A stretch of DNA of 64,000 nt from Schmidtea nova. Taxonomy: Eukaryota. The first letter of the stretch is position 1. Each line of letters begins with the position of its first letter. Under the pieces are notes generated by a model, which was not told the DNA's origin, searched no databases, and saw only the letters and a program-made list of their open reading frames with translations. Below, piece after piece: positions 9,598-60,997 of the stretch. The DNA lies in NCBI GenBank assembly GCA_044892505.1, contig CM097883.1, positions 172,670,001 through 172,734,000 of the forward strand, written 5' to 3'. The translations under genes were made by a program, and so were the position numbers.

Positions 9598-9895
9598 AAT
9601 ATAAGACGTTATTTCCAAAATTATATTCTATTTAAAACTGTAATATTTAAACAAATATTAATCTAAATATCGTCACTGTTTTGGCTCCAGATTTTGATCT
9701 TAATCAAAGCCAATTACCTCAACAGGGAAATCTACGACTAGATATTAAATTTGGAACACCATTGACTGAGTCAGTTTCTGTAATTGTATATGGATTTTTT
9801 GAAAAAGAATTGCAAATTACATCTAATCGCACAATATTGATTTGATTAAAAATTACTGGTTTGTTATAAACTAATTTTTAAATAAATAAGAATAA

Positions 9896-29410: not shown

Positions 29411-30615
29411 TCAAAAGCAACTTTCCACTTTCGAACCAGGTGCACACATCTTTTCAGCGGCTACTGGTAAATCATCCAGTAAGTCGTGAATTGATGCCGG
29501 TATTTCTAAATCAACTTCTACAGTATAACCATAGTTAAGCTGACATAAATCTACCGTTGTGCATTCCAACAAGATATTTTCAAGTAATTGGTCATCCGTG
29601 ACCCAAACAAAGTCCCGGTCCGGTAAGTTTTGTGAAAGAGCCCAGCCATACAGATTATTAATATCTTTGTACAGCAACTCTGTATCTGAGCTCGTTTGCA
29701 CATGATGTTTATTAACGAAAGTAAGGCCGCCTCTGATTCCACCTTCAAAAAAGTTGTACATCTCCATATCGGTCAAAAGCTCGATAGGAGATTCTAACGT
29801 CATTAAAGCAGAACACCAACTCATACCAGGTATACCTAAAAAATTCAAAGGCTCAAGTTTGTTATGAGCTATACTTTTTGTACGAAATTGTTGAAAATAA
29901 TCAGCCAACAGAAATATGTCAAGTTTCATGTAAACCATCATATAATCAAATAATGAGTTACAAGAATTTTCTCTCCATATTTCTTTTGCCTTTTCATAAT
30001 CAACAATATCGACACCTTCCCAAATTGGTGGCAATTCAAGAGTCGACCTCAATACATCTAAAGAAGTGGCAACGTCGTAAGGAAAAATCCCCTTACTATT
30101 TATCATGTTTCCAGTAAATTCAGAAGAAGTCAGAGGAAAAGATGACAACGTTTTCACTAAAGAATCTAAAGACTGACTAGCAAATTGATAAGAGTCAATG
30201 AACTTAACTGTGAGTGATCCTATTCTCGCAAAAAGACTGAGAAACTTTTCACTGCTGACATGAACACAGCTAATGTTCCAAGACTCATATTTTGAAAGGC
30301 CGAATTTGAGAATATGATGTAAATCATACCCTCTTAAATTGTGAAATACTATAGGCAAAGTGTGTATAATTTGCCGAGATATGTTACATTTTTTGCACGC
30401 TGCTCCAAGATAAGCACCTGTAAAGTGATCGTGATCTTTAACAGGATTTTCTAATACTTTTTCACACAAGTAGCAGTATGTTGCATTTGAAAAGTTTTGC
30501 ATGTCATCATAAGTTAAAATAATACTTTTGTTGGAATTTTTATAATAAAAGGGTGTTACAATTTTGCGACTTATATTTTCGATCTCGTGTAGAAATTGTT
30601 CAACACAATCTAGTC
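29411..30615 (-). pseudogene. Polinton protein-primed PolB, central part (continuous with 62376-63075 before the hAT insertion)
   Basis: DHDHFTG.Y.GAAC..CN, FHNLRGYD.H, KFIDSYQF, KGIFPYD, GIRGG, YKDINNLYGWAL motifs. C-terminus truncated. Confidence 0.92.
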
Positions 30616-32052
30616 CAGGGATGCCCAAAGTACGGCCATCTGGCCGCATGCGGCCAGATTTACTTTTTTATGTGGCCAGTTTTACTTTATTTCGTTACAC
30701 GTTGTTTTGAAAAAGTAGAATCGATTTATGATTTCTATAAATCCATATTTTCTCGATATCCCCTATAAAAAAATTTCATATAAGAAAAGGTTAAAATAAA
30801 AATCGATTTTTAATTTCCCAAAATCAATAATTTCCTATTTTCGCAAATTGAAAATCGATTTGGCTTAATATCTTTGTAAAGGATATGATCCTATAAGAAA
30901 AGTTTTAAAAAAATCGATTTTTAATTTCCGAAAATCAATTATTTCCTATTGTGAATTTGGAACAAATGGAACAAAAAAAAGTATGGTCAATATGGAAATT
31001 GAAATTAAATGGAAAATAAAACTACTTGTTTTAAAAGTTATATAAATTTTTATTGAATAAAAAAATACATATTTGGAATTGTTTATACTTGTACATTTAA
31101 TTAAATCTGGCAATTGTAAGGTTGAATTATTTATTAATATTAAAATTAAATAATAAATAAATTTACGTCTTGTAGATAAAAATGAATGAAAAAAACGTAA
31201 GTTAAAAGATGAAAACTGCTCATTTCAAGAATCTTGGACCACCGACTTTTTTGTTGAACCAAAAGGTGTTGGCGTTATATGCTTGATTTGTGATGCAGTT
31301 ATTATTCTCAAAGGATATAATATTAAAGAACATTTTTCTAATAAACACAAACAAAAATATGACAAACTTTCAACTCAACAACGTGAATGTGAATTAAAAA
31401 AATTGCGTAAACAAAAAAACTTTCAGCAAAACCTTTTTGTACGTTGTAATGATGAATGTGAAGGCATAAAGTTAGCTAGTATTATAGTTTCTCAGCAAAT
31501 TGCAAAAAGATTAAAGCCGCATTCGGATGGTGAATTTATAAAAGATTGTCTGATTTCAGTTGCAGGTGTTCTAGTTCCTGATAAGGTTAAAATTTTTAAG
31601 CAGATTAATTTATCAAGAAATACAGTTTGTCGCAGGATTACAGATATTTCTACAAAAATTGAAGACACTTTGATAAGTATGTTGGGCCAGCCAAATCGAG
31701 CAGCATCTGAAAATAATACACAATCAATAAAATAAATTTACAACAGAATAACAACAAAATAAATTACCAACACCAAAGCGTAACAAAATAGGCGGCAACA
31801 TCTAAAAGAAATAAAATATAAATCAAACAACAAAAATCTTCAAAACTCACTCATGCGAAGCAGAAAAAATTGGAATATGACAGCGCGTGGGCGGATGTCA
31901 CCAAAGACCTAAAACAAAAATAAAATAAAATAAATTGATGACTAAGAAAAACTTACCGCATGATTAACCAAACAAATCGGCAAGTTAAGTTAGGCACCAA
32001 AAAGCCGGCAACACAAAATAATGAATCAAACATACACACATACTCGATGCTG

Positions 32053-32191
32053 ATTGGCTAACCAACAACACCGGTTGAGTATAAATACTGAAGTAAAATC
32101 AGTATTTGACAATGTCATTTTTACTGAGTGTGAGTAACAGTAGCAACTTGTAGACAACTTGTGAAGCAGTAAATTGGAATAAAAGGTAATT
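32053..32191 (+). promoter_or_regulatory. Candidate LTR core promoter and first splice donor
   Basis: ATTGG (reverse CCAAT) at 32053, TATAAATA at 32080-32087, TCAGT Inr-like at 32099, AATAAA at 32178-32183, AAG|GTAATT donor-like site at 32186. Confidence 0.5.
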
Positions 32192-33112
32192 TCGAGTTGC
32201 ATTCTTATTGATTTAAACCCTCATAATTTTCATTGTTAATCATGATAAAATCCATAAGGTTTTCCGGAGGCCTAACAGCCTGACGGATTCTTGGGGCCTC
32301 TCAGCGCAACACAATCTTTCGGTTGTGAGGTGCTGATGCGGCGGGACCATAGGTGTTCTAAATATTTAACAAGCGGAAGGGGGAAGGGCACATCGGATAT
32401 CTCATGCCATCGCAACATCAGTATGGGTAGAAGCGATTGAAGGGCGTATCATCCGTCACGACAACATCGAGTACATGGGTTTACATAAAAGAAGTGTTGA
32501 TAGACAAAAGTGTTCAGCGTTCGTGAAGTCCAGTAGAGTAACGACGGTTTGGTGCAAAGGGTTAGTATGGAGATATACACTACATAGGTCAGGTGAGTTC
32601 GGAGGCTGACAGAGCTAGCGTCGGAGTAAAACCATGAATCCACAGGATGCCCCAACATATATACGCCTCACGAAGGGTACACAGGATAGTCCCACGAAAT
32701 ATAATACGAGCACAATCTGTACCCAATTAACCTGAGTAAGGGGTCGAACAAGTTCCCCGGATGATGTGACCATTGTTAATTGAAAATGAGGTATGGAGAT
32801 AACACCTGAGATGCGAGTGAGTATGATTGCTGTAGATATAAACCAAAATGGTCTCTGAAATGATGATATTCAAACATAATAAATGATCAAGTGATCATCA
32901 TAAATGAATACAGATCGTCATAAACTACACTGAATTTTTGCGTGGCCAAACCAGTTAAGCAACTTGACATAGTGAATACACTCAACCACATGACGATAAC
33001 ATACAACCTACCTACTATCTTGAACATCGAACCGATCTAACACTGAAACACCAACGGCAACCTACAGAGTTTTACTCTTGAGTCGAGTAGGTCGCCGATT
33101 ATAAATAATTGC

Positions 33113-33781
33113 ATGCACCTAACCAATTCATCACAATCACATCTTCTTGTCTTCAGAAAAATGATCAAGACCGAAGAATATCAAAGAAGTCCGAGCACCT
33201 ATCGACAGATGAAAATGGAAGATTATGTCGGCCGGGAACCACGACGCATCCGTTCCGTCGTCCGGCCAAGGAGGTTCCCTACCATCGAGGGAGAAGTGGA
33301 AGCCCCACGCAGAATTAGCGAAACTGCGCGTCGCCACCTACGACGGTGGACAAGACACCATATGAGTGCAGCCGCAGATGTTCCGGCTTGCGCCTTCACG
33401 ATACAATTACGATGGGAAGGAGACCCCGATTGGATGTCCACCATGGACCCTGCCGAACCAAGGACCGATAGATGGTTCTTCCAATTTCTCGACGAGCAGA
33501 GACGACCCCGCTGGGTATTGAGCAATGGAATGATGACCGGAAGGGCTCTTTTCCAATTAGGATACCTGCTGCTAGACAGGCCTCGGTGTCGCTACACTGA
33601 GGAAGTCTTCACTTATTCCAATGCACCAGGAAGTGTTTCCGTAGAACAACACCCCGAGCCCAAGGAGCTTCACCTCTGGGAGGTGTTTATCTACAAAGAT
33701 AAGCTGAGTTGGACCCAGCCCCAGAAATGTATTGGGAGAATGGAATTCGTCGCGACGAGCATCCTGCCGATCAGGAATTGA
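33113..33781 (+). CDS. LTR-encoded ORF-A, unknown function (likely start ATG 33161); second copy at 59184-59852
   Basis: 222-codon ORF, Trp/Arg-rich. ATG 33161 follows TCTTCTTGTCTTCAG|AAAA. Confidence 0.55.
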   Translation: MHLTNSSQSHLLVFRKMIKTEEYQRSPSTYRQMKMEDYVGREPRRIRSVVRPRRFPTIEGEVEAPRRISETARRHLRRWTRHHMSAAADVPACAFTIQLRWEGDPDWMSTMDPAEPRTDRWFFQFLDEQRRPRWVLSNGMMTGRALFQLGYLLLDRPRCRYTEEVFTYSNAPGSVSVEQHPEPKELHLWEVFIYKDKLSWTQPQKCIGRMEFVATSILPIRN

Positions 33782-33941
33782 GGACATTCAGTTGATTGAT
33801 ACCGAGAAAGAATGATTGTCTTAGATATTGAAATATATGTATTGGTGTGTGACGGTCTTGTTTTGTTTTGAGTGCATGAGAACAACCTAAGGATAAGGTA
33901 GAGTTGTTTAATGACGATAGGATGACCGAAAAATCAGACAC

Positions 33942-34541
33942 ATGACATATACTAACATTAATGATATATTTACAGACATGACGGAAACCAAGGGCAGAGA
34001 TTTCAAGCAAGAGGCGCGAGAACACAAGGCGCGCTCACGAGTCCTGGAGAATCGATTAAGGCAGCTGAATGAGGAGCATCAGCGGATTAAGACTACATGG
34101 TTTAACCCAGAGCGGGTTAAGTCCATCCTGCAGGCTAGGTACAGGGCAGAACGAGTAGCTGAGGAACATGCCAGAGAGATTGCAGCCCTGAAATTAGAGT
34201 TGGCGAATTATTTGAAGGTATCGACTCGCGACTTCATTACCGAACAACTACGCCCAGTGATCAGAGCTAGCACCTTTAATCGATGGATAGACACGATAGC
34301 GGTGACCACGAGCACCCAAACAGAGACCGATACCATCGCAACCACGACGATCGAATCAACAATGAAAACTCCAGCCGGTTCGAAACGAACAAAGAGGAGG
34401 AATCGCTTAGGAGCGAAAAAGCGCAGGGAAAGACGCGCATATGCAGATCGCGTAGGAATAGAGGTAGACTTGCTCAGTGGTCTATCTGAGCAAGAACTAC
34501 TAAATGTAATCCGACCCTCTGTATTATTAAACCATAAATAA
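33942..34541 (+). CDS. LTR-encoded ORF-B: coiled coil plus arginine-rich motif (likely start ATG 33978); second copy at 60013-60612
   Basis: 199-codon ORF with KRTKRRNRLGAKKRRERR. AATAAA overlaps the stop and is followed by a GT/T-rich tract. Confidence 0.6.
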   Translation: MTYTNINDIFTDMTETKGRDFKQEAREHKARSRVLENRLRQLNEEHQRIKTTWFNPERVKSILQARYRAERVAEEHAREIAALKLELANYLKVSTRDFITEQLRPVIRASTFNRWIDTIAVTTSTQTETDTIATTTIESTMKTPAGSKRTKRRNRLGAKKRRERRAYADRVGIEVDLLSGLSEQELLNVIRPSVLLNHK

Positions 34542-34932
34542 ATGTATGAAACGAATGACTTGACTTGTTTTGTTTGATTGTGGAATGTTTGAGAATTGAA
34601 TGTAGATAAAACCCGGATTCATTTAAAGCTGCAGATATCTAAAAAGTACATTACCCTAGGACACTAGAAAGGAGCATAAGTGGGACCGAAAGAAAGCCAC
34701 AGACACCTTCTATCGGTAGTGGTGGACCCGTGAATAAACAAGGGAATAGTAGCCGAAAGGTTGCTCACCTGCCTTGTCATTTCACAACGTTGACACAGCA
34801 CCAACATGATGAGTAGTTAGGGATACATCATGGGTGTCAGCGGGGGAATGTTTTTATGTTGGCGAGATCACCCTAACATATAAAATCATAAGGATCTCAG
34901 TTGTCAATCTAACCAACACACCAGCATAAATT

Positions 34933-34950
34933 TGGGGGCTCAGCCGGGAT
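34933..34950 (+). other. Primer-binding site, tRNA-Pro type
   Basis: TGGGGGCTCAGCCGGGAT matches the classical PBS-Pro TGGGGGCTCGTCCGGGAT at 16/18 positions. Starts 6 nt after the LTR end. Confidence 0.85.
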
Positions 34951-35465
34951 TAAATCGATCTTTGTGGGAAAAAGTGAATGCGATATCTGCGGACAGTTTA
35001 GAGCGCCTGAACCGGGATGAATTGAATTTAGCGAGGAAAGGTAAAGTAAATAATAACAGAGGGTTTAAGTGTCCTGAAGCAAGAATGAATCGGGTTGAAA
35101 AATAATAAATAAAAGTATGAGTGTAAAATAATGAGATTGATGAACGTGATGAAAGTATGCATGAGAATGAAAGTATGAGGACGAATGAAGCATGATGACT
35201 AGTATGTGGAATAACAGTATGAAAAGTGATGAAAAGTATGCATGACGTAAGGTAAAAGTATGCTGAAAAATGGGTATGGTATGAGTGCGAGTAACTAACA
35301 ATGATCATGTCGGGGCGACATTCAAGAACACGGGGGGATACGCAAGTAACGACGCAAAACCGAACAACAGAAAGCGAACAGTAGGGCTACCATAGAATAA
35401 GAATGATAAATAATAAAAAAAAAAAAAAAAATCGATAACAAAATTAATGAGAATTCATTCAGGGG

Positions 35466-35924
35466 ATGGAGAACAAAATAAAAGAAATGCAAACGTTTTT
35501 CGAGACAAATAACGAGACAGTGGAGACAATAACGAGAAAGTTAAAACGACTCGAGGTAGGAGGATATCACGAGCCGACAAACAACACAGAAAGAGCTGAA
35601 ATAATGATGAGCATAAGCGAGAATAAGATAACAGTGGATACAGCAACACGATATCAATGGTATAGAGAAAGATTAAACAACCCTGAGATGAATATCGAGT
35701 GCCACAGACTAGAGCAACAGTTAACAACAAAACACGATGAGTGGATAAGAATAACAACAGAACATACGAGACAATATCTGACGTGTTATATCTGTGAAAT
35801 GAACAAAATACAGATAATGTTGTTGCCATGTGGGCATTTTCGATTCTGTAATGACTGTAAAATAAATGAACGATGTCCTATGTGCAACCTTCCCGTATCC
35901 GAAAGAATAACAGTGTACTTGTAA
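35466..35924 (+). CDS. Accessory protein with C-terminal IAP/MDM2-type C3HC4 RING (candidate E3 ligase); no BIR seen
   Basis: CYICEMNKIQIMLLPCGHFRFCNDCKINERCPMCNLPVSERITVYL at the extreme C-terminus. AATAAA at 35929. Confidence 0.8.
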   Translation: MENKIKEMQTFFETNNETVETITRKLKRLEVGGYHEPTNNTERAEIMMSISENKITVDTATRYQWYRERLNNPEMNIECHRLEQQLTTKHDEWIRITTEHTRQYLTCYICEMNKIQIMLLPCGHFRFCNDCKINERCPMCNLPVSERITVYL

Positions 35925-36618
35925 TAGAAATAAAGTTTTGAACAAGTGCAGTTGTTATTGAAATTATGAGGGTTTAATAATGATTTGGTAAAAATGACCT
36001 AAGTAATCATGAGCTACTTATGAGTAGTCCGATAAGCACCCATTGGGGGGAACCAACTGATCAACTTACCCGAGATGTGTAGAAAGGGGCCAATCGCGGA
36101 TATTGGAAAGCTCTTGTGATGTGACTGATCACCACATCGTGCATCAGTGGACCAATGCGATCTTTTTATATATTTTGGTTGGGGTGAAAGGTAGGGACAA
36201 CTCAATGAGGTTTAGGCGCGCGCAGAAAAACTATAAAAATAGGATGTTAAAACTGATCAGTAGAGAAAGAGAGTGAGGAAATGAATAATAAAAGTGGATA
36301 AATGTGGTATATGATGAAAGGCACGTAATCAGCTCGCATAAGGTAAAATCAAGTAGAGAGGTTGACGAATCAATAATAGAATAAAGGGGTGTAATAGATG
36401 AACCGAGTTAATGGAAAACTCGAGGTTAAATGAATTCCTTGAAAGAAAGGAAATGATAAAAGGGGTCCTAAAGAGAAAGGATTTGCCCATAGTTCTTGAA
36501 AGATAGAACTTAACGAAACGCGACAATAGATTCTCCGAAGAAGCATAAGTGACCACTGGGAGGAACATCCCGAAGCAACACATGCAACCACTGAGAGATG
36601 ATATTTCGAGTTTTCGTT

Positions 36619-37180
36619 CGTGAGCATAGGTCTCATAGTGAGCATAGGTCTCGTCATAAAAATAACATCCTAGTGAGCATAGGTCTCGTCATAAAACATA
36701 ACATCCTAGTGAGCATAGTTCTCGTCAGTGAGCATAGTTCTCGTAGTGAGCAGAGTTCTCATTTAATAAACACAAGACCAGCGAACCTAGTCCTCATCAG
36801 TGAGCGTAGTTCTCATCAATAAACATAGCCATCGTAGTGAGCGTAGTTCTCATCAGGAAACATAATTCCTGTAGTCACCATCAGTGAGCGTAGTTCTCAT
36901 CGGGGAACATAGTCCCCAGGGCAAAGAGTTTCCATCAGTAAGCAAAACCCTCATAACAACCATGTTTTGCCAGTGAGCATAGTTCTCGTTAGTGAGCATA
37001 GTTCTCGTCAGTGAGCATAGTTCTCGTCAGTGAGCATAGTTCTCGTCAGTGAGCATAGTTCTCGTCAGTGAGCATAGTTCTCGTCAGTGAGCATAGTTCT
37101 CGTCAGTGAGCATAGTTCTCGTCATTGAGCATAGTTCTCGTTAGTGAGCATAGTTCTCAGCTGTGAGCATAGTTCTCGTT
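36619..37180 (+). repeat. 19-bp repeat family AGTGAGCATAGTTCTCGTC: about 9 dispersed copies, then 11 tandem copies (36972-37180)
   Basis: Direct counting. Confidence 0.95.
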
Positions 37181-37504
37181 CGAAATAAAATATTGAGTAA
37201 AAGCCCACGAGAAAGACGACGAAGTGAGGCAGATGAGGACTAAATTACGTATAAAACTATCCGGATAGTGAAGATCAACAAGCGATAATAGAGATGAATA
37301 AGTGACAATGAGGATAAATGATGAATAGTGAAAATGAATAGCGAATAATGAGGAATAAGGGTTGAAAGAAACCGAGGTAATAATGAGAGAGTTGAAGGTG
37401 CGCACCTGGGTATTGATAAATGCGAGTAAAGCTGATTATGTGGCCTAATGATGTTAAAGTATGCATACAGAGGAGTAATAAAGTAAAGTGAGTAAGTGGA
37501 GGGT

Positions 37505-37966
37505 GCTGACTGGAAAACCCAGCAGACCATGAGATTCGATGGGAATAAAATGAAACCGGTTTGTTAAGACAGGTAAAGTGGTAAAGACGCTAGCTGGAAA
37601 ACCCAGCAGGTCAATGATAACGATCAGGAAAGATCGAGATAACAAAAGTGAGTAATAATAAAGTGGTGAAATTGAGGACGCTGACTGGAAGACCCAGCAG
37701 GTCAAAAGTGATGATCATCGGAGTAAAGAGCAGGTAAAAGTCGACAGTGAAGAGATAAAGGATGGATAATAAGAGCGCTGACTGAAAAAACCCAGCAGGC
37801 TAATGAAACGACAAGTGAGGTCGAGAATAATGAAACAGAAGTAAAAGGTGAAATTAAAAGCGCTGACTGGAAAACCCAGCAGGCTAATGAGATAATGAGT
37901 GAAGTTGAGAGAAATAAAGTCGAGATAAAAGGTGAGATTAAAGGCGCTGATTGGAAAGCCCAACAG
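37505..37966 (+). repeat. Six regularly spaced copies of a 21-nt hairpin motif GCTGACTGGAAAACCCAGCAG
   Basis: Starts at 37505, 37589, 37680, 37777, 37862 and 37946 (period 84-97 nt). Confidence 0.92.
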
Positions 37967-38531
37967 GCCAACGAGAGATGTCAGTTGAATTAAAGGTGGG
38001 TGGAGATGAGAATTGAAATGAAGTAGTAAACGTAGTGTGAATAGGAAATAAAGCGAATAGTCGAGAAACAGAGTAGTCGACAGATAAGGGGAAATTAGAA
38101 CTCAGAGCCAGAGAAGCCTGAGAAAAGTAAAGGGGATAATAAGAGCGCTGAGCGACAAAGTAATTGGGGAACTGGGGAAAAGTAATTGGTGTATTTGATA
38201 AAGAATAGATAATTGATGCGACTGCATAGATAATTTAAATAGACTTAAAATCAAGGGAAATGGGAAAAATGGGGATCTTCATGAATTATGACTACACCCG
38301 TGAGAGGGACGAGAAACACGATAACGGGGACGTATCGTGTAAGTGATTATTTGTTTTAAGGAAACAAATCAATCAAGCAATTCAAAGCAATCTAGCAGTC
38401 AGAGCAATCAAAGGAAACAAATCAAAGAAGAAGCAAAGCAAAAGCGGAGTAGAAAATCAGTTGAGAATATAAGAAATTGAGGAATAGACAAAATTGAGGG
38501 ACGAGAAACAAGATCAGGTATAATACCAATC

Positions 38532-41500
38532 TTGACAGAAGCAGAAAGAAAAGCAGCAAAAAGAACAAGAACAGGTAACAAGCCTAAGCAACAAAAGAAC
38601 AAACAAGTAGAGATCAGCGATAATTCGAGTAATAAAGAGAATCAAGAAGAAACCCCAGAGGATCCAGAAGTACGAAACGAAGTAGAAACGATAGACAGTG
38701 AACTAGTCAGGGAAAACAGAACAAGAAGCGAATCAAGAGATAACGAAACAGAGAGTAGCGAAGAAGAAGAGTCGAATTCAGAAACAAGTGGTGAACTAGA
38801 AGCAAAGAAAACTAGTACAGTATTCCAAGACAGTGGAATCGGGATGAGTGAACACAGAGAGGATCTGAGAGAAAAATTCAAGGGCGAACCATTCAATGGA
38901 GACGCCAGTAGATTGGATACGTTTCTGAAGGAATTTGGCATATTTGTGGATATATGCGGATGGAGTGCAGAAACGTTGGCAAATCGAATCCCGCTATACT
39001 TGAAAGATAGCGCATTGGATCTGTATATCGAAAAGAGATCGGGAAGTAATCCACCCAGAACGTGGGAAGAGATCAAGGAGTTCTTCCAACAGACGTTTGG
39101 GATAAACAAAGTGCTGAATGAAGCATTCGATGAGTTTTCAGCAAGAAAACAAAGGAGAAACGAGTCAAATGCGGTGTACGCAAGCGAATTAAGAAAGTTG
39201 GCGAAACTGGCGTTCAATAGAGGAAGCCCAGTAGACGAAGAATTGATGACAGCGTTATTCGTACGAGGTCTCAGGAGACCTGACATCAGAGCACAAGTGG
39301 GATGCAAAGGATGTAAAACAGTAGATGAAGCGTTGGAAGCAGCCAACCTATTCGAATTGCATATGGCAATGAATGACATGAGAATTACGGCGGTAATGGG
39401 AAAAACGACAGAAGATGAAGAACAAGGAAAAAGAAACATGAATCAAAGTATTCCCCATTCGCAGAGATTGTTCAAAGAACCGCCAGCGAGGAAGAATAAC
39501 GGATATATCACGGTGAACACGAGTGGAGGAAATAGTTATAATGACAGGCAGAATAGGCAATGTCAGACGTGTGGGAAAAACGGACATTGGCAACAAGATT
39601 GTTTTCAGAATGTAGCCTGCAAACTGTGTGGACAAAAAGGTCACTCAGAGAATCGATGTTATGGGAAAACGTGTTACACATGTGGAAAAACCGGACACAT
39701 GTCAAAAGACTGTAATCAACAGAGAAGTTGGGCAAACAGTGGAAATAGACCGAATTACGGGAATCGACCAAGCTATGGGAATCAAGGTCAACAACGGAAC
39801 AACCCAAACAGCAGTGCAAATGAAGCCAGTATGAAAGAAGCTAAGTTGAGACAGGAGGTATCCAGATTACACGAGATAATCGAAAGCATGGCAAAGGGAA
39901 GCCAACAAGCTGCTCAACCAAAGATAAACATGATCCAGTTAATAGAAGCTGAGGCCGAAAGAGAAAACAGAGAAAGCCAACAGAAACATAATCAAGAATG
40001 GGCTAGAATACGACGAGAAGAAGAACAAGTCAGACAGCAACGATTACAACAGTTAAAAAATGGAAATCCAAGGATCAACATGATGCGAGCAATGATGGAA
40101 GAGAAGCAGCAAGATGAGTCAGACGAGTTAGAAGTTAAAGAGAAAAGAAACGAAGAGCAGAAAAAAGAAGAAGTGAATCAGGAAATAGAAACTGCGGAAC
40201 AGAGTAAAAAAGATGAAGAAACAGAAAAAGAAGCGAATCAAGAAGAGGAAGTGAGAATCAAACAAAGAGGAATGATAGTGATCATGCCGAATGATCATTG
40301 GTTTCGATTCAAATACGATGTAAAAGAAGAAGTGGGAAGATTGTTCAAGAAAGTAAATGAGATGATTCCGGGAGTGATGAAACTGCCCAGAGAAGCCTTC
40401 CTACAAACAGAAGACTTACCGGAAGTAAAGTTAAAGATGACTGATATATGGGAAGATATGGGAGTAACGGAGACGAAAATAAACGTGATGATCATCAGAG
40501 AGGTGGAACCGGAGAAAATCCCACCACCTGTGAAACATCAAACTCGGATCAGTCGAATATTCAAAGGGAAAATAAGACGAAGACGGCTGGAAGAAATAGA
40601 CGAGTTAGAAAAGAGAATGGGAAAAGCTGAAATAACGGGAAACGAGAATGAACTAATACAAGAAGTTAGCAAAAACGAAGCGAGACCAACCGCGCATATT
40701 GGGATGCTGAGACACCCAAGACAAGAGTTGTCAGATGAGGAAGACGACAGCGAAGTTAGCAGTCTGGTAGGAGACATGCTAAAGGAACCAGAAAACGAGG
40801 ATAAAAAGATGGAAGTAGTCGAGACGATAGAAACGATGTCAGTAAAGGAAGAGGAAATTCAGAAGCTGATGGATAACGCGTTGGAAGTAATCCATAACGA
40901 GGAGTTTATCGACGGGAAACGATATAGAAAGTTTATACGAGCAGTATGGCAGACGAAGTATAAAGAGTGGTTACAAGAAAGAGAAGTGAGGGTAATACAA
41001 GAATTCATAGAGAAGTTATTGAAAGAGCCACTGAACGAATACGTAATACAAATATGGATAAACGAGTGTTCACCAAGAATCTGGATAAGGAACCCAATGA
41101 CGGATGGAATTTACCGATGGGTTGAGGACAGATTGGGAAGCTCGTACCAAGACAAATTCATATATTCGGAAAACGGATTGGTGAAAAAAGGAACGCATAT
41201 GATAGACACAGGCATCTGGCCAGGAGAAATAACAACGCTATCTATATGCAACACCAAGAAGGAAGAGAACTTACAGGGAATCGTCAAAGAAGCGAATACG
41301 TGTTATGAGATGAGAATAAAACCTCAGTTGATGGAGGCAAAGGAAAGAATCTTGGCGGAGAATTTGAATACGATGATAGAACAGATCATCCAACAAATCA
41401 AGAAACATCGAAAGGAATTGACGAAAAACGAGTATGAGAATTTGAAACAGTGTATCGAGAACATACGAGATACAAGTCAAACGAGACATTCAAATTTCAA

Positions 41501-44500
41501 AACGGATAAGTTAATCGCCAAGATGGGGAAAGAAATGTTTAAAAGAGGAGAAATATCAGATCTGATGATTACCGTGAGATTGCCGAACGAAGAGACAAGA
41601 CAAATTGAGGTAATACCAGATAGTAAAGTGGGAGAAATAGTAGATGTCATCAATGAGACGATATTACAACGAGAACGAGAAGACGAATTCGAAGATGACA
41701 TTGCGATAAAATACAAAGAACATCTACTGAACGAACGTGACGAAAGACGAGCATATAAAATCGGCATATGGGACAATTTCCAGACAATACATGTCATCAG
41801 AATGGATGATGTGCCAAGAGCAACACCAAGAGATGAGGAAAGGAAAAAGAAACGACAAGAGGACGTTATGCGCAAGTTGAGGCAGATAGTAGAAATTTAT
41901 CGGAACTGGCAGATGAAGCCAGAATGGGAGACAATATTAGGAGAATTGGATCTTAACAGACGACGATTGACGCCAGTAGAGAAGCAATGGGATAACAAAG
42001 AGAAATGTTGGAAAGTGAAAAGAGGCGTGTATGAAGAAGATCCGGAAGGAGAAGACAGATATGAACGGAATACGAAACGGATATGTATGGTAACAAGGAG
42101 GTTATTACCAACGGACTTAGACGGACCAGAAACTGCAGTAATATGGGCAGAATTGGAGAAACAGAAAACGAGTGAATTGATCGAGCTGTTGAGAGGAAAT
42201 ACTCGGGGAAAAAGACAAACAATAAAAGGCTTAGCACAATTCATAATCTCAAATGGAGAAGACATAACGAACTTGAGAAAAGTAACTAAAGCGATAGCAG
42301 AATACAAGAGAGTTAACGAGTGGTGTCCAGAGCAACTAGACGATGTAATAAAAAAGTGGAGAAACAAAGAGTTTGCGGAGGAAACGCCACAAAAAATACA
42401 TTTGAGGATAATGTATCCGAATCAGAGAAAAGAAGAGTTTTGGGTGATGCTAACAGAGAAAGTGAAAAGTATCAAAGAGAAACTGATGTATGAACTACCA
42501 TTCCACCTGCAACATCAAGGACGATCGTTGGATAATAAGTTGGAAATCTGGCTGACACCAGTGCAATTGGATCTAATGAATACGTTAACAGTGGCACAGA
42601 TAGTGGGTCAACCACTGAAGTTTAAAGAAGAAAAGAAAGCGAAAGGAAGCATGAGTACACCAAGTCCGATGAAGTCAACAATGACCCCAGGAATAAGTTC
42701 AGGACAAGCAAGGACAACACCAATAAAAACGAGAGAGAGAACACCGCCAGAAGCGTATGACGTCGATGAGATACTAACAGACAGTGACGAAGCGATAGAA
42801 GAATTAACGAAACTGACTCAAAAACCAACGGCGAATATTTTCGACAGAATAATAGAGATGCCAATAACGTCACCAGCAGAAATCGACGATCAAGGAGTGG
42901 AACAGGAGGTAGTCATAGAAATGGTAAACGATTCGGAAGACGAGCAAGAACAACCACAGTTTACTCAAGAAATGGAAAGATGGTTAGAACAACGAGCAAA
43001 CGAAGGAAGAGATGTTACGGAAGAAACGGGAAGAGCAACGAGATTTGTAGAAACCGGAACTGGAATGGAAAAGCGACCAAGAGGAAGACCAAAGATAGAT
43101 CCAGCAACAACAATCCCAAAGACAAGAGAAGAAAGGAGACAAGAGCAATGGGAGATTTGCTTGAGGAAACTGGATAAAATCGCAGAGATCAGAGGCAAAG
43201 AAGAGAATCAAGTTTGTCAAGGAGAAGAATGGCTCACCAAAACGATAATGGATGTGTTAGCGATAATTGATCCAGAATTAAAGAATCTGTGGCGGATAAA
43301 CGAACCCAGTACAAAGGCAAGGATGCTACACAATGCGATAGCACCAATTATGCCAGAATTGATAAAAGCAAAAACAAAATCGAATCATCTAGATTGGCAA
43401 GGAACCACGATGTTAATAAAAAGGCTACTTAACGGAGCAGAGACGGATAGCAAATATCTAGTAGCAATCTCGTATACGATATACAATTTGCTAACGCTAA
43501 GCCGAGGGAGTCCGAAGTCAAGTCCGATGGGAAGACATATTAAAAATACGGCGATGATTATCGAGAAGGAAATTGAACCATATATCCTCAGGAAAGGAGG
43601 ATGGGAAAAGTTCATAAAAGAGAACCAGACAAAAGAGGGTTCTAACGTGATGAGAAAGAAACTCGAAGGAGTATTGAGGGAAATGGAGAATAGACAAACG
43701 ATGCAAGGAAACGGAAGATCGACGTTGAATTTAAACTCGATAATCATGATGATGTTAGTATGGTTGTTAAGCACAGAAAGTGTAACAACGTTCGAAGTAT
43801 TTGATTGCGATCAAATGAAATTGGGAGAAAAGTACTCATTGAGAGGTACGGAGCAATGCAAAGATGCAACTCCAGTAGAATTGAAAGAGATCAAAAAGGA
43901 ACAATGGTACCACGTGTATCAAGAGGCAGAACTCATAAAGACAATGGTGAATGAATGCAAGGTACAGAAGACGAGATTCGCATTCTATTGTGGGAGAGGA
44001 CATTATTCGGCAATTGTCATGCCAGGAACAGAAAGAGAACCAATCGTGTTACAAGGAGAAGACTGCGAAGCATTATTTAAACATGGAGAAGTAACAACAA
44101 GAGATAAAATCAAGATAAGAGGAAAGCCAGGAATGATGTTGCAGCAGACGTATTATGTAGCAGGACGAATTACGGGAGGAGAAGGGTATTGTCAAGGAGA
44201 AACCTACCCAATATTTGGAGTACCTGCAACCAACCTAGTAGTAATGGATACATATATAGTCGAACTGAAAAGCTACGAAGCATTCTTCGAACCGACCACA
44301 GGAGAAATGAAAACGTTATCCATGTGTAAAATTGACAGAAGCATGTGTCAAACGGGAATGTCAACTTTGGTGTACAAACCGAAAGTGAACGAATGTCAAT
44401 TACAACTGCTACAAGGAGCAAAGTTCGACGAAATTCAAGGAAAAACGTTCCAGGAAGAGGACGATGATGACAAAGCTAGAGCAAAGCATCTCAAAGAGGC

Positions 44501-47500
44501 TTTAGAGAATAAAAGACAATTGAGACCAGATCATAAAGAAAAACGAATAGAGATGAGAACCACACCAACAGTGTTGATAACCACAAATCAGGATGTGGGC
44601 ATGAGATTCATAAAAGGGAAAGCAACCCTTAAGTGCAGTACAACAGTATACGAAACAAACTATCCAGGAATATACGTGTCGAAACAAGAAGTGCCGAATG
44701 CGAAACCCAAAATCGACACAATGGATATCAAGCTACACTTGTATGTGAATAATAAAATGGATTTCTTATTCCATAGAGGACAAGCCTCATTGCAAAAAGT
44801 GTACTATGATCTGATAAACAACGATTGTATACTGAACCGGGAAATATTAAAGACAAAGTTGGCCGTAGCGATTACGAATCCAGATAGCGCGATGCCATTA
44901 TTACCACTGAGAGAAGGACATTTCGGAAGAGTAGTCGGAGAAGCAATGTATGTATACATTTGCGAAAAGACACACGCATCGCTAGCAGCAACAACGCAGT
45001 TGAAACCTGGACAATGTACAAATGAATTAGAAATCGATTATAAAGGAAAAGTACGATATGTTCAACCGGTGACGAGAATCATCAATCCACCAGGGTTTGA
45101 ACCAAATCCATTCAACTGTAGTAATGCGTACGGACCGCTTTATCAGAAGCCAGATGGCAAATGGGTCATGTTCCCAGGAAGAACCGAAGTATTAGCACCA
45201 AGAGAATTTGAGCTAATGCAGTTGTCAAAAGATAGACAGTTCAGTGACGTAGATGTCTCAAACAACGGAATCTATAGTCCAAAAGACTTAGAAGCGGCAA
45301 GGCAGAATATACTATTCCCGGCAAGAAGAGAAGCATTACTGTCAAATATCGTAACGATAACGGGAGGAACGAATTATCGAGAAGGACCGAATTACGAACT
45401 GTTGTTGTCACCGGCACATTTCAAGAAGGCCACAGAAAATATGATGAAGGCAATGTGGGGAAGATTCCTGATATTTGGACAAATGATGGCTGGAATACTG
45501 GGAGTGATATTGATAATACAAATCGTCAGAGTGATAATAACGCAAATGTTAGCGTGTTTCGACATCTACAAGAGAGAAAAGAAAGTGAATTGGAAAATGG
45601 TAGTAGGGTTTTTACCATTCCTTGCGAAAACGATGGTGTTACACGGACACTCAAAAGACATACATCGAATAAAGAGGTTGTTGAAGATACTTGCAAAAAT
45701 GAAAGGAACTAACGAAGATGTCGGAAGGAAATTCAAAAAGATAATGCAAGATGAACAAGCAAGGCGACAACTAAAGAAAGAAAGGAAAGGATTATGGGAA
45801 AGAGTGAGAGGATATAGAACACAAGATGATTCAAGTAATGATGACGATGATGATGACGATCGAGGAGGACAAGCGAATATAAACCAGATTCCACAATACA
45901 CCGAAAAGAGTGCAGTTGAGAATTGGAGATACAGCGCTCCACCTCAGTCAATGTATAACGAACCGATATACAAAGCGAAGCCGAATATGATGCAGATGAT
46001 GCCGATGACAAGTATATACCCGATAATTCCCGAAGGATGCAAAGTAAAACGAGGTAAAAGCGTAGACTCGTTGGAAGACACGCACACGATAGCGGTTATG
46101 TCCACAAATATGGGACCAATCTTAACAACAACCGTAGAAATAAACGGAAGAGAAATTGAAGCTATGATCGATACAGGCGCGAATATTTCGGCAATCGACA
46201 TCAATTATATACCAGAGAAAAACCAAGGAGAAATTGAGAAGACGAATGTTCATGTAATCGCGTGCAGTCAGGAGACAGTAGAAGTAGCCGGAAGATGGTT
46301 TGTAAAAATTAAGCATCGAGGTGCAGAAATCAACACGTACATCGCTGTAATACCATCGCTGAGTGTACCATGTATTATTGGAACTGACCTGATGCCAGAC
46401 CTGTTCAAGGAGATTGTAATTGACCTAGGAGCAATGAAACTAAAAGATAGAACAGGAAAAATCTGCAGAATGAAAGTTAAAGTGGCAAGTGCGGAACAAA
46501 TAGTAGTGCCAGCGAGACATGAAATGATGTGTTATGTCAAGATCGATTCAACAATAAAGGGAGATATGGTATTCGAACCAAGTAAGAAGTTCGAAGCAAA
46601 GAAAGAATTACCAATGGCAAGAGAATTGGTTACGATAAACCAAGAAGGTGAGATACCAATTAATCTGGTAAACTTCGACGAAGAGGACAAGATAATATAC
46701 GAGAATGAGAATTTGGGTAAATTGACACCCATGTCCGAAATCGAGATACCAGACAAGAACGAGAAAAGCAAAGACGAATTACCATGGAAAATCGACAGTG
46801 TGTTGTTAGACGAGCGACAAAAAGAACAGCTACAGAAACTGTTGATGGAATATAAAGATATATTCGCAGCATCAGATTTAGATCTGGGAACATGTGACGT
46901 AACATTACACACGATACCGTTGACGGACGAAACGCCAATAGCATTACGACCATACAAATTGGCAGAAGCTCAAAAAGCAGTGGCAGAAGAAGAGGTACAA
47001 AAGATGTTAGAGGCAGAGGTCATCGAACCTAGTTGCTCACCCTGGCAATTCCCAGTGGTGATGGTGAAAAAGAAAGATGGAACTCAAAGATTCTGTATCG
47101 ATTACAGACGATTAAATGCCGTTACGAAAAGAGACACGTACCCACTGCCAGACATAAATGAAATGTTGTTGACGTTACAAGGAGCAGCTTATTTCACGTC
47201 ACTAGATTTAAAGAGCGGATATTGGCAGATCAAAATGAAAGACGAGGATAAAGAAAAGACAGCATTTACAATCGGACGAGATCTGTACCAATTCAAGAAA
47301 ATGCCGTTTGGGTTAACAAACGCGCCAGCATCATTCCAGAGATGCATGAATTTCGTAACACATGGCATAAAACAATGCATGGTGTATATCGACGATCTAT
47401 TGATCTACTCCGCAACATTCGAAGATCACTTGCAAGACATCAGAAATGTGTTTGTGAAATTGAGACAGTGGAAACTGAAATTAAAGCCGTCAAAGTGCGA

Positions 47501-50500
47501 TTGGGCAAAAGAGAAAGTGACATTCTTAGGTCACATCGTATCAGCAAAAGGAAAAGAACCAGATCCAAGGAATATCGAAAAGGTCAAAGAATGTCCACCA
47601 CCAAAGACAGTGACTCAAATACAAGAATTTTTGGGATTGTGTGGATATTATCGAAAGTTTATCAAGGACTATGCAGGAATATCAAAGCCAATGCAAGAAT
47701 TGGTAAGACAAGATGTGTCGTTTGTATGGGGAGGAGAACAGCAAGCAGCATTTGAGACATTGCGAGACAAGCTGATTACAGCACCAATACTGGTCCATCC
47801 AGATTTTAAGAAGCCATTTTTGTTGGCAACAGATGCAAGTGGATACGCAGCAGGAGCAGTACTAGGCCAATTTGACGAAGAAGGCAAGGAAAGAGTAATC
47901 GGATATTACAGTCGAACCTTCAGGAAGCATGAAAAGAATTACTCAGTCACGGAAAGAGAAGCCTATGCAATAATATTGGCAATCAAGCATTTCAAATACC
48001 TATTGTGGGGTCATGAAATATATATCACGACGGATCATCAACCATTGATATGGTTAGGTCAACACAAAGAATCATCAAGTAGATTGATGCGTTGGGCGAT
48101 GCAGTTACAAGAATACTCACCGTTCATAAAGTTTAAAGCAGGAAAAGCAAATGCAAACGCAGATTGTATGTCAAGATTTACATTCCCAGAATTGGTGAAC
48201 CTAAACGCTCTGAAAATATGTGCATTAATAGCGGAAGATTTGGATTTCAGCGAACTAAGGAAAGATCAACTCGAAGACGAGGAGTTGGGATTGATCAGCA
48301 AGTATTTGAAAGAAAGTGAAATAGAAATATTCGGCAAGAACCAAACGTTGCGCGAACATATGCAGAAATATCAGCATCGATACGTGATAGAAAAAGGATG
48401 GTTATTGATACAGGATGGAGAACGGAGATTGATGTGCTTACCTGCGAATAGGCGAAAGGAAATCATGACTCAATATCATGACGGAAAATTAGGCGGACAT
48501 ATGTCAGCGAAAAAGACAATCGGGAGACTGAGACAAAAGTACTTTTGGCCAACCATGGAAGATGATGTGAAAGAATGGATAAAGAACTGCTTAACCTGTG
48601 CAACAAGAAAGAACGTCGGAACAAAGTGGAAAACACCACTAAAACCAATGCCAATACCTGCAGAACCAATGGCAACAATAGCAATGGATGTAGTTGGACC
48701 ATTGCCGGAAAGTTTGAAGGGAAATCAATACATATTAGTAGTCACGGACTATCTAACAAAGTTCCCAGAAGCGTTCGCAATACCGGATCAAAAAGCGAAA
48801 ACAGTCGCGAGAATATTGGTGGAAGAGATATGCTGCAGATACGGAACACCAAAGAAAATCCTAACGGATCAAGGAACGAATTTCATGAGTGAAATATTAG
48901 ACGAAGTTACGAATTACTTCCGAATTGCGAAATTACGAACATCCCCATACCATCCACAAACGAACGGTCAAACGGAAAGATTCAATGGAACATTAATACG
49001 CATGTTGTCGAATTACGTCAGCAAACACCAGACTGACTGGGACGAGTATATAAACTTGTGTTTAATGGCATACAGAATGTCAATACATGCGGCAACAAAG
49101 CTAAGTCCATTCCAACTGATGTACGGAAGAGATTGCAACTTACCGATCGATTTAGAATACCAACCACCATTATCACAGTATATGGAGGTTGACGATTACG
49201 TTACAAAGTTCAAAGAAAGAATGCAAGAGATCTGGAAAACGGCGGAACTGAACATCAAGTTCTATCAAGAAAGTTATAAGGATCTACATGATCAGAAAAG
49301 GAACGTGAAAGCACATGATTTAAAAGTTGGAGATTGGGTGATAATCGAAACACCAGAGATAATACCCGGTACGGTCAAGAAACTCCAACGACCAGGCAAA
49401 GGGCCATACGAAATAACAACAGTAAACGAAAATAATGTGCGAGTACGATTGGTGAACAATCCATTGGTAAGACCAATATACGTGAATGCATGTCGATGCA
49501 GAAAAATACCCAAGACAGCAACTCTATCACCAGAGAAACGGGTGATGACAAGATCACAGACGGCGAGAATTAATATGTTGCGAGTACAACAAAAGCCGCA
49601 ACCAAGTCTAGAAGACAACCGAAGAGAAGCAATAGACATCAAAGAACTGGCAAAGAGGACCAGAGAAATTATACCAGAATGGAGATGGTGGCTCGATTTC
49701 AATATACTGTCAGAAGTGCGGAAGAATGTAATGGAGTATGCAAAAGACAGAACAGCGCATCCAATTACAAGAACGTTACTGGAAGAAATCCCTCAAACAT
49801 TGAATTTACAAGATAAAGACGGTAACACAGCGTTGCACAATGCAATCAAGCACAGTGGGAACGAAAAAGTGAAAGAGATCGTAGAGATGATACTCGAAGG
49901 TGGAGGAGAAATTGACAAAGTAAATTGGGAAGGAATCACTCCACTCATGATGATGACAATTCACGGAAGAAACGATGAAATAATCAAACTATTCGGAAAC
50001 ACCAGATCGAATTGGTTGACAAAAGATAAAGAGGGACGAACATTCTTGAATCATGCAATTGATAGAGCGAATCACCGAATACTGAAGTATATTACGGAAA
50101 ATGCCACGTGGGAAATCGATGAACTAACTAGAGGATCAATCATGAAACAAGCAATCAGGGTAAAGAACAGTAAAACCTGGAGAATATTGCTAAAGTGGAA
50201 ACGACCAGAAGGAGATTCGTGGGTCATGGATTGTAATGAAGTGTTCATAAAGGGAGAAAATGCGCTACTGAAACATTTATTAGAAGTAACATACGATCCA
50301 AAAACACTTGCAGTATTAATAGCAAGAGATACTCTACGGGTCAGCGAGAACCCAAGAGAATACAAGTTGGAAGACAGAAAGAAAGAACTATTCGGATTAA
50401 TCAAGAAATGGTGTGATAAGCAATGGAATCCGGATATGAGCTTCGAACATTTCTATGACATTCAAAAGCAGCACAAAGAAATAAGCAAGAGATATAAAGA

Positions 50501-57750: not shown

Positions 57751-60700
57751 TGTTGGGCCAGCCAAATCGAGCAGCATCTGAAAATAATACACAATCAATA
57801 AAATAAATTTACAACAGAATAACAACAAAATAAATTACCAACACCAAAGCGTAACAAAATAGGCGGCAACATCTAAAAGAAATAAAATATAAATCAAACA
57901 ACAAAAATCTTCAAAACTCACTCATGCGAAGCAGAAAAAATTGGAATATGACAGCGCGTGGGCGGATGTCACCAAAGACCTAAAACAAAAATAAAATAAA
58001 ATAAATTGATGACTAAGAAAAACTTACCGCATGATTAACCAAACAAATCGGCAAGTTAAGTTAGGCACCAAAAAGCCGGCAACACAAAATAATGAATCAA
58101 ACATACACACATACTCGATGCTGATTGGCTAACCAACAACACCGGTTGAGTATAAATACTGAAGTAAAATCAGTATTTGACAATGTCATTTTTACTGAGT
58201 GTGAGTAACAGTAGCAACTTGTAGACAACTTGTGAAGCAGTAAATTGGAATAAAAGGTAATTTCGAGTTGCATTCTTATTGATTTAAACCCTCATAATTT
58301 TCATTGTTAATCATGATAAAATCCATAAGGTTTCCCGGAGGCCTAACAGCCTGACGGATTCTTGGGGCCTCTCAGCGCAACACAATCTTTCGGTTGTGAG
58401 GTGCTGATGCGGCGGGACCATAGGTGTTCTAAATATTTAACAAGCGGAAGGGGGAAGGGCACATCGGATATCTCATGCCATCGCAACATCAGTATGGGTA
58501 GAAGCGATTGAAGGGCGTATCATCCGTCACGACAACATCGAGTACATGGGTTTACATAAAAGAAGTGTTGATAGACAAAAGTGTTCAGCGTTCGTGAAGT
58601 CCAGTAGAGTAACGACGGTTTGGTGCAAAGGGTTAGTATGGAGATATACACTACATAGGTCAGGTGAGTTCGGAGGCTGACAGAGCTAGCGTCGGAGTAA
58701 AACCATGAATCCACAGGATGCCCCAACATATATACGCCTCACGAAGGGTACACAGGATAGTCCCACGAAATATAATACGAGCACAATCTGTACCCAATTA
58801 ACCTGAGTAAGGGGTCGAACAAGTTCCCCGGATGATGTGACCATTGTTAATTGAAAATGAGGTATGGAGATAACACCTGAGATGCGAGTGAGTATGATTG
58901 CTGTAGATATAAACCAAAATGGTCTCTGAAATGATGATATTCAAACATAATAAATGATCAAGTGATCATCATAAATGAATACAGATCGTCATAAACTACA
59001 CTGAATTTTTGCGTGGCCAAACCAGTTAAGCAACTTGACATAGTGAATACACTCAACCACATGACGATAACATACAACCTACCTACTATCTTGAACATCG
59101 AACCGATCTAACACTGAAACACCAACGGCAACCTACAGAGTTTTACTCTTGAGTCGAGTAGGTCGCCGATTATAAATAATTGCATGCACCTAACCAATTC
59201 ATCACAATCACATCTTCTTGTCTTCAGAAAAATGATCAAGACCGAAGAATATCAAAGAAGTCCGAGCACCTATCGACAGATGAAAATGGAAGATTATGTC
59301 GGCCGGGAACCACGACGCATCCGTTCCGTCGTCCGGCCAAGGAGGTTCCCTACCATCGAGGGAGAAGTGGAAGCCCCACGCAGAATTAGCGAAACTGCGC
59401 GTCGCCACCTACGACGGTGGACAAGACACCATATGAGTGCAGCCGCAGATGTTCCGGCTTGCGCCTTCACGATACAATTACGATGGGAAGGAGACCCCGA
59501 TTGGATGTCCACCATGGACCCTGCCGAACCAAGGACCGATAGATGGTTCTTCCAATTTCTCGACGAGCAGAGACGACCCCGCTGGGTATTGAGCAATGGA
59601 ATGATGACCGGAAGGGCTCTTTTCCAATTAGGATACCTGCTGCTAGACAGGCCTCGGTGTCGCTACACTGAGGAAGTCTTCACTTATTCCAATGCACCAG
59701 GAAGTGTTTCCGTAGAACAACACCCCGAGCCCAAGGAGCTTCACCTCTGGGAGGTGTTTATCTACAAAGATAAGCTGAGTTGGACCCAGCCCCAGAAATG
59801 TATTGGGAGAATGGAATTCGTCGCGACGAGCATCCTGCCGATCAGGAATTGAGGACATTCAGTTGATTGATACCGAGAAAGAATGATTGTCTTAGATATT
59901 GAAATATATGTATTGGTGTGTGACGGTCTTGTTTTGTTTTGAGTGCATGAGAACAACCTAAGGATAAGGTAGAGTTGTTTAATGACGATAGGATGACCGA
60001 AAAATCAGACACATGACATATACTAACATTAATGATATATTTACAGACATGACGGAAACCAAGGGCAGAGATTTCAAGCAAGAGGCGCGAGAACACAAGG
60101 CGCGCTCACGAGTCCTGGAGAATCGATTAAGGCAGCTGAATGAGGAGCATCAGCGGATTAAGACTACATGGTTTAACCCAGAGCGGGTTAAGTCCATCCT
60201 GCAGGCTAGGTACAGGGCAGAACGAGTAGCTGAGGAACATGCCAGAGAGATTGCAGCCCTGAAATTAGAGTTGGCGAATTATTTGAAGGTATCGACTCGC
60301 GACTTCATTACCGAACAACTACGCCCAGTGATCAGAGCTAGCACCTTTAATCGATGGATAGACACGATAGCGGTGACCACGAGCACCCAAACAGAGACCG
60401 ATACCATCGCAACCACGACGATCGAATCAACAATGAAAACTCCAGCCGGTTCGAAACGAACAAAGAGGAGGAATCGCTTAGGAGCGAAAAAGCGCAGGGA
60501 AAGACGCGCATATGCAGATCGCGTAGGAATAGAGGTAGACTTGCTCAGTGGTCTATCTGAGCAAGAACTACTAAATGTAATCCGACCCTCTGTATTATTA
60601 AACCATAAATAAATGTATGAAACGAATGACTTGACTTGTTTTGTTTGATTGTGGAATGTTTGAGAATTGAATGTAGATAAAACCCGGATTCATTTAAAGC

Positions 60701-60997
60701 TGCAGATATCTAAAAAGTACATTACCCTAGGACACTAGAAAGGAGCATAAGTGGGACCGAAAGAAAGCCACAGACACCTTCTATCGGTAGTGGTGGACCC
60801 GTGAATAAACAAGGGAATAGTAGCCGAAAGGTTGCTCACCTGCCTTGTCATTTCACAACGTTGACACAGCACCAACATGATGAGTAGTTAGGGATACATC
60901 ATGGGTGTCAGCGGGGGAATGTTTTTATGTTGGCGAGATCACCCTAACATATAAAATCATAAGGATCTCAGTTGTCAATCTAACCAACACACCAGCA
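57751..60997 (+). repeat. 3' LTR of the giant element
   Basis: Direct repeat of the 5' LTR, followed by the TSD AGTA. Confidence 0.97.

Follow-up and report, generated by a model that had tools for sequence, protein, structure and literature searches.

Tandem covarying bulged hairpins upstream of gag in a Burro-like giant Ty3/gypsy element of Schmidtea nova: a possible packaging handle

Introduction

Burro and GYPSM1 are giant Ty3/gypsy elements of planarians (PMC6431247, available to us in part). In retroviruses (PMC12789967), packaging signals lie before gag and are made up of stem-loops, bulges, and unpaired purines; splicing often removes or refolds them.

The window analysed here is a stretch of 64,000 nt from Schmidtea nova (contig CM097883.1). 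An initial annotation of the window pointed to six bulged-A hairpins between a primer-binding site (PBS) and gag, and proposed that they form a multivalent packaging, dimerisation, or export signal. Here, we describe the array, the element that carries it, and its relatives in the genome, and we weigh what it may do.

Results

The array lies in a Burro-like giant element

The hairpins belong to an LTR retroelement with the following main features:

31680-60997, plus strand: LTR retroelement carrying the array, 29,318 bp
31680-34926, plus strand: 5' LTR (TG..CA), 3247 bp
33942-34541, plus strand: LTR ORF-B, 199 aa, with predicted long helices and an arginine-rich helix; second copy at 60013-60612
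34933-34950, plus strand: PBS, complementary to host tRNA-Pro(TGG)
35466-35924, plus strand: RING-finger ORF in the interval from PBS to array; it has a separate acceptor-like AG, and an AATAAA follows its stop
36971-37179, plus strand: 19-bp tandem repeat, 11 copies, with degenerate copies from 36620
38844-51977, plus strand: polyprotein ORF (from the first ATG)
57751-60997, plus strand: 3' LTR

The two LTRs differ by a single mismatch over about 3250 bases, and the element is flanked by a 4-bp target duplication, AGTA. A single ORF runs from gag and an in-frame env through protease (PR), RT, RNase H, and integrase to ankyrin repeats, encoding a Gag with three CCHC knuckles and a fusion glycoprotein; the RING and TRAF ORFs are separate from it. 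On this layout, together with a size near 30 kb (29,318 bp) and long LTRs (3247 bp), and not on a direct sequence match to Burro1-4, we assign the element as a Burro-like giant Ty3/gypsy. Its env relatives are 30-46% identical and none carries the Burro name, homologue searches with Gag found nothing, and a search with env against viral contigs returned no loci. Read depth peaked at 34426-35053 in four sequencing runs (contigs; the kind of run is unrecorded).

Several other features were observed in passing. An 11-nt LTR block at 34763-34773 is invariant across four families; its sequence resembles an E-box when read on the plus strand and a splice donor when read on the minus strand. The tRNA-Pro has about 900 matches in the genome, many of them within a 308-bp tandem array (L051; G000:C1 near 459.6 Mb). 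Upstream of the element, 29411-30667 (minus strand) holds a DNA polymerase B / endonuclease VII fragment; at 61550-62275 there is a fragment of a hAT transposase, apparently the insertion target of the element. Positions 5105-9677 hold a smaller element on the minus strand, which has three ORFs and terminal direct repeats of 104 bp.

Six hairpins with two bulges each fold singly and in context

The array spans 37502-37969, with core motifs starting at 37505, 37589, 37680, 37777, 37862, and 37946, and comprises the following units:

37502-37528, plus strand: hairpin unit 1, basal GGU/ACC, in synteny with the one hairpin that sister families have
37586-37612, plus strand: hairpin unit 2, basal GAC/GUC, bulged A displaced by one base
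37677-37703, plus strand: hairpin unit 3, basal GAC/GUC
37774-37801, plus strand: hairpin unit 4, basal AGC/GCU, top pair open in the window copy
37859-37885, plus strand: hairpin unit 5, basal AGC/GCU
37943-37969, plus strand: hairpin unit 6, basal GGC/GCC, C-G to U-A swap

From the base upward, the general form of the hairpin has a 3-bp basal stem, a bulged G, 3 bp, a bulged A, 4 bp, and a 5-nt loop; the full hairpins thus measure 27-28 nt, with 10 pairs and two single-base bulges (G and A). The basal triplets come in four versions across the units, each with its exact Watson-Crick complement. Folded singly, the units reached z-scores of -2.4 to -4.1 (0-7 of 200 shuffles were equally good). 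All six hairpins also formed when the 511-nt region was folded whole (z -3.5; none of 100 shuffles as good) and in local folding of 36000-38900. The six bulged-A hairpins of the initial annotation were therefore confirmed at their positions, both singly and in context. The 7-bp stem that it described holds for the core but not for the full length, as the stem runs past the bulged G to 10 bp. Similarly, its form of three pairs, A, and four pairs is exact in units 1, 3, 5, and 6, but not in unit 2, where the bulge is shifted, or in unit 4, where the top pair is opened. This top pair is closed in 27 out of 30 loci, and the opening change was found in 2 of the 30. The G-C to A-U swap of unit 2 is present in 3 other loci. 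The C-G to T-A swap claimed for the sixth copy is present and keeps the stem; swaps of this type occur in 17 hairpins across 66 loci.

The 21-nt cores are 88% alike between units, whereas the spacers between full hairpins, 74% A+G, are 61% alike compared with 54% for shuffles, which points to an old tandem array of 84-97-nt units. In agreement with the annotation, the spacers are A/G-rich and more diverged than the motif, although their length, given there as 60-75 nt, measures 57-70 nt between full hairpins. An Rfam scan of 35000-38900 yielded four weak matches (E above 2), none at the gathering score, and palindromes of at least 8 nt in the leader were not above chance (9 versus 8.7 expected).

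Inherited variants spare the stems

The exact core has 391 matches in the genome and the relaxed core 668, while reversed controls had none; from these sequences, we estimate the window family at about 140 elements. A pattern demanding pairing gave 289 matches, which were used for copy counting only. Out of 66 loci, 58 carry six units, five carry five, one carries seven, one carries four, and one is cut after a single unit, so that the copy number of intact arrays varies between 4 and 7.

Covariation was assessed on 20 distinct variants of the 10-bp stem, each seen at least twice (200 cells). Paired cells made up 97.5%, compared with 92.9% for shuffles, and none of 500 shuffles reached the observed share; controls with slid partners paired at most 50.6%. 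Three of the five unpaired cells are due to the register shift of unit 2. Two-sided changes were found in 5 of the 10 stem pairs, a number reached by 5 of 500 shuffles, and the lower three core pairs had no two-sided swap, only C/U changes. Two-sided changes thus go beyond the controls, as in a conserved RNA structure; kinship may inflate the shuffle comparison, and the slid controls are also far lower.

As related sequences can beat shuffles, a comparison of inherited and private variants carries more weight. We used 56 six-unit loci, after dropping two near-duplicates (L002 and L020), and considered private variants as mostly post-insertion and shared variants as having passed through replication. 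Shared variants were found in 10 of 120 columns in the stems and in 89 of 305 in the spacers (p 1.7e-6 by Fisher's test, and 1.4e-6 when stratified by base), whereas private variants affected 28 of 120 and 82 of 305 columns, respectively (p 0.27). Stem changes as frequent as spacer changes, which the annotation had named as evidence against its reading, were therefore not seen for inherited variants. Loci entered the sample either for their similarity to the window or for an exact match to the core, a choice biased towards intact cores; however, such a bias would deplete private variants too, and the fact that these are not depleted weighs against it as the cause. The stems of units 1, 3, 4, and 5 have 0-1 inherited variants per 20 columns.

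Among the eight shared pair changes, two are compensatory, three lead to G-U, and three are pair-breaking, affecting an outermost pair (19 loci) and two loop-closing pairs (2 loci each). The 31 private pair changes comprise seven to G-U and 24 that break the pair. The excess of pair-keeping changes among inherited over private variants (5/8 versus 7/31) was not significant (p 0.08). Since inherited one-sided changes are mostly to G-U, the folded form would be plus-strand RNA. Taken together, we have little doubt that the array is a real RNA structure under selection, as judged from its pattern of variation.

Three sister families keep a single hairpin

The PBS pattern has 2940 matches in the genome. 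From the first 100 among the matches listed, we took 60 loci outside the window family, of which 47 belong to family A, four to B, three each to C and D, and two to E, with one odd locus. In families C, D, and E, all eight PBS-picked loci contain one hairpin, syntenic with unit 1 and within the same order of leader blocks. In these hairpins U-A is replaced by C-G, G-U pairs occur in C, and loop sequences differ; loops measure 4-7 nt across families, and an A-C mismatch lies in the upper stem of two of the eight loci. In the cross-family core, 96% of 126 cells are paired, with two-sided change in 3 of 7 pairs, a number that 62 of 500 shuffles also reach. The basal stem is not kept in the sister families, and Rfam had no matches on three sister loci. 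These comparisons indicate that the six-unit array expanded from one ancestral hairpin, which was kept single in families C, D, and E.

The most abundant relative among the PBS-picked loci, family A, matched the hairpin pattern at none of its 47 loci. Compared with the window element, it is 88% identical in RT, 81% in integrase, 55% in env, and 36% in Gag, a profile that suggests module exchange between elements. Its leader has one different hairpin candidate of the 3+A+4 form, with G-U pairs in three of four loci scanned (L069:5261, L062:5017, and L092:5440, PBS-oriented). Family B (L057, L060, L066, L070, and L197-L200) is gag-only, short-LTR, non-autonomous, and recently mobile, with LTRs 99.6-100% identical and about 50 copies; at the corresponding place it has a conserved 6-bp lower stem, and the upper stem is lost (-4.2 kcal/mol). 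In family F (8 elements, Gag 24% identical), neither hairpin nor PBS was present in the stretches examined.

A different, covarying hairpin, K, was found in 5-6 copies in family E, in 0-21 copies in C, and mostly singly in D, and was not found in the window family. Example stretches are:

L063:1928-2143: hairpin K
L108:2451-2643: hairpin K
L083:1900-2680: hairpin K

Unstable tandem repeats are present in the leader region of all families. A Gag tree did not settle the order of the window family, B, C, D+E, and A. Look-alike motifs in L218-L224 (seven loci), L225, and L164 were dropped as chance matches; L218-L225 have no gag or PBS.

The array precedes a conserved acceptor-like site

The array starts 2552 nt downstream of the PBS and ends 875 nt upstream of the gag ATG. 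It lies between PBS and gag as annotated, although "5' leader" is a loose term for a place beyond the RING-finger ORF. Two further features separate it from gag:

38316-38340, plus strand: a further bulged-A hairpin, present once, with 8 bp below the bulged A, 2 bp above it, and a 4-nt loop; it immediately precedes the acceptor-like site
38345-38360, plus strand: T-rich tract ending in AG, predicted splice acceptor; among all AGs on the sense strand of the element, it is the richest in T

The acceptor-like site at 38360, 391 nt after the array and 484 nt before the gag ATG, reads AAG in the window copy and TAG in the sister families. A T-rich AG lies 481-653 nt upstream of gag in 14 of 15 loci from six families; in the other, L088, the scan picked a site at -840. 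Acceptor-like AGs are also found just before the ATG of most other ORFs (33156, 33975, 35462, 54287, 55789, and 57022). No splice donor was identified, and trans-splicing is a possible alternative to a cis donor. There were no GT..AG joints among 15 of the 56 joints listed in four sequencing runs (contigs; run kind unrecorded). Given its place upstream of a conserved acceptor-like site, the array is probably confined to unspliced RNA if the acceptors are used. The hairpin at 38316-38340 is identical in at least 40 of 47 family loci and covaries in C, D, and E, and family B has a hairpin of the same shape in other letters. This hairpin could hide the branch region.

Discussion

Possible roles of the array

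We tentatively favour the explanation that the array is a multi-site handle, gripped by the element's own Gag on unspliced genomic RNA for packaging. Like packaging signals, it is structured, lies upstream of gag, and has purine-rich single strands. Splicing to 38360 would remove it from gag-pol and downstream messages, the A/G-rich, weakly paired spacers would display the hairpins, and tandem duplication would raise the number of binding sites. Gag is the default candidate partner, since psi elements resemble the array and the packaging-dependent family B, without LTR ORFs, keeps part of the stem. The retention of the 6-bp lower stem in this gag-only family, which lacks ORF-B, counts for packaging, whereas the loss of its upper stem counts against it, as do the single copies with which C, D, and E manage and the absence of the hairpin from family A, though the Gag of the latter is only 36% identical to that of the window element. 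Typical retroviral packaging signals are closer to the PBS than the 2.5 kb seen here. Out of the roles proposed initially, protein binding, packaging, or export fits the anatomy as a candidate function of the conserved, selected stem, while dimerisation is not supported. The five window-family loops tested do not self-pair, and AAAAC, AAGAC, AAAAAC, and AAAGC give no stable self-duplex, which speaks against kissing loops.

Possibly, though we consider it doubtful, the hairpins instead serve LTR ORF-B as its response element. In the manner of Rev-like proteins, this arginine-rich, helical protein would guide unspliced RNA out of the nucleus or protect it from processing. ORF-B is conserved in four families, the window family plus C, D, and E (20-28% identity, with an invariant G..RR in the basic stretch), and these four are the very ones that carry the full hairpin. 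The LTR and leader stretches examined of A, B, and F did not contain it, except for a fragment in one rearranged locus, and family B, without ORF-B, has lost the upper stem. However, the four families are close kin, so that this co-occurrence amounts to about one event, and the tree is unresolved at this node. A model predicted from the single sequence without alignment (pTM 0.26) has long helices followed by a basic helix at 155-171, but the basic stretch may be a localisation signal, and ORF-B has no relative in Pfam, PDB, or Atlas. The acceptor-like sites before most ORFs imply that the element likely needs export control. Against this, only three of the six ORF-B proteins have a leucine-rich export-signal pattern, C-terminal to the basic motif, and known response elements lie in env or LTR according to the accessible part of PMC5568270, whereas the array lies before gag. 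More broadly, it is conceivable, if doubtful, that giant gypsy elements run their own Rev/RRE-like system. In that case an LTR-encoded arginine-rich protein would read bulged hairpins, and families would retune it by multiplying different modules (the present hairpin, H, in the window family, and K in C and E), which would amount to a modular address code on the RNA of LTR elements that are not retroviruses.

It is rather unlikely that the hairpins tune splicing, each hiding a branch-point-like Y-U-R-A-Y, with the bulged A as branch base, paired to YAG, and acting as a decoy or attenuated acceptor that keeps enough RNA unspliced. The likeness of the 5' arm to a branch point follows the general branch-point consensus. 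The lower three core pairs, with their C/U changes, keep both YURAY and YAG, and the second bulged-A hairpin sits directly before the acceptor-like site. Nevertheless, YAG follows from pairing with CUG and is thus no independent sign of a splicing role, unit 2 breaks the branch-point-like word yet is conserved, and there is no pyrimidine tract at the hairpins. The spacers also contain donor-like GT words, but many copies have these disrupted, one of the words in at least 28 of 56; a mini-intron reading, with one donor word per spacer, was dropped because these words are polymorphic.

Binding by a host RNA-binding protein, such as a transport, translation, or stability factor, appears unlikely. 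Bulged stems with a free loop sequence would suit shape-reading proteins, but the hairpin is restricted to one clade of families, has no Rfam match, and has loops that vary between families. We find it improbable that only one hairpin matters and that the additional units are a side effect of slippage or template switching in a leader prone to repeats. The unstable repeats in all families, the copy number of 4-7, and the single hairpin of sister families are as this reading predicts; however, the four different basal stems each remain complementary, conversion would make units alike rather than differently paired, and the stems of units 1, 3, 4, and 5 are nearly free of inherited variants. Finally, DNA binding sites (insulator or enhancer) are very improbable. 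Position and multiplicity do match the Drosophila gypsy insulator, with 12 Su(Hw) sites in the 5' UTR (PMC3383448, in the part accessible), but an insulator does not explain the covariation, and two-sided changes, G-U tolerance, and 4-7-nt loops are unexpected for a double-stranded DNA site.

Meaning and comparison with known systems

The array thus appears to be a cis-acting signal on retroelement RNA, of inferred function; what sets it apart is that several independent hairpins, each covarying, stand in tandem and go back to one ancestral hairpin. Literature searches, conducted at the level of search results and outside subscription papers, found no report on Burro hairpins. The array would represent a compact, evolution-supported cis-acting RNA element in giant, spliced, env-bearing retroelements that the literature consulted otherwise describes by their proteins, and it bears on how a 26-kb RNA with many acceptor-like sites stays whole and gets chosen for packaging. 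With a hairpin of 27 nt, compensatory variants that occur naturally, and two candidate partners that can be named, the question becomes testable in vitro, and the sister families that multiply a different hairpin offer a natural comparison of RNA signals gaining valency.

The likeness to the MS2 operator put forward in the initial annotation is architectural only. Like the array, MS2 and PP7 operators consist of a small hairpin whose 5' arm carries one bulged A; in the MS2 operator, the bulge is followed by two pairs and a loop of four bases, compared with four pairs and a five-base loop in the array. The array also has a second bulge, other stem and loop lengths, and no start codon in the hairpin, and the element encodes no coat protein of the MS2/PP7 fold. 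The MS2-type shape (bulged A, 2 pairs, 4-nt loop) is found in the separate hairpin at 38316.

With Burro/GYPSM1, as described in the part of PMC6431247 available to us, the window element shares a size of about 29 kb, multi-kb LTRs, and one polyprotein with three CCHC knuckles, as well as a fusion glycoprotein between gag and protease, ankyrin repeats, and TRAF/MATH and RING cargo. That part of the description marks tandem repeats in a figure legend only and contains no hairpin, packaging, or export element. The Su(Hw) insulator of Drosophila gypsy, an element that also bears env, likewise consists of a motif repeated within the 5' untranslated region (PMC3383448, in part), but it is a DNA site, whereas the array covaries as a stem. 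Rev-like systems (PMC5568270, in part) have in common with the element an accessory protein with an arginine-rich motif, predicted to be helical in the case of ORF-B, and a multi-site structured RNA on RNA that, for the element, probably contains introns. They differ in that the array lies before gag and not in env or LTR, the export signal of ORF-B is not conserved, no sequence relation was found, and the element is a Ty3/gypsy and not a retrovirus. With psi, as covered by the accessible part of PMC12789967, the array shares bulged stem-loops amid unpaired purines upstream of gag, and its specificity for unspliced RNA is predicted. In contrast to psi, it lies 2.5 kb from the PBS behind another ORF, has no self-complementary loop, and is built as six near-identical separate hairpins rather than as one branched fold.
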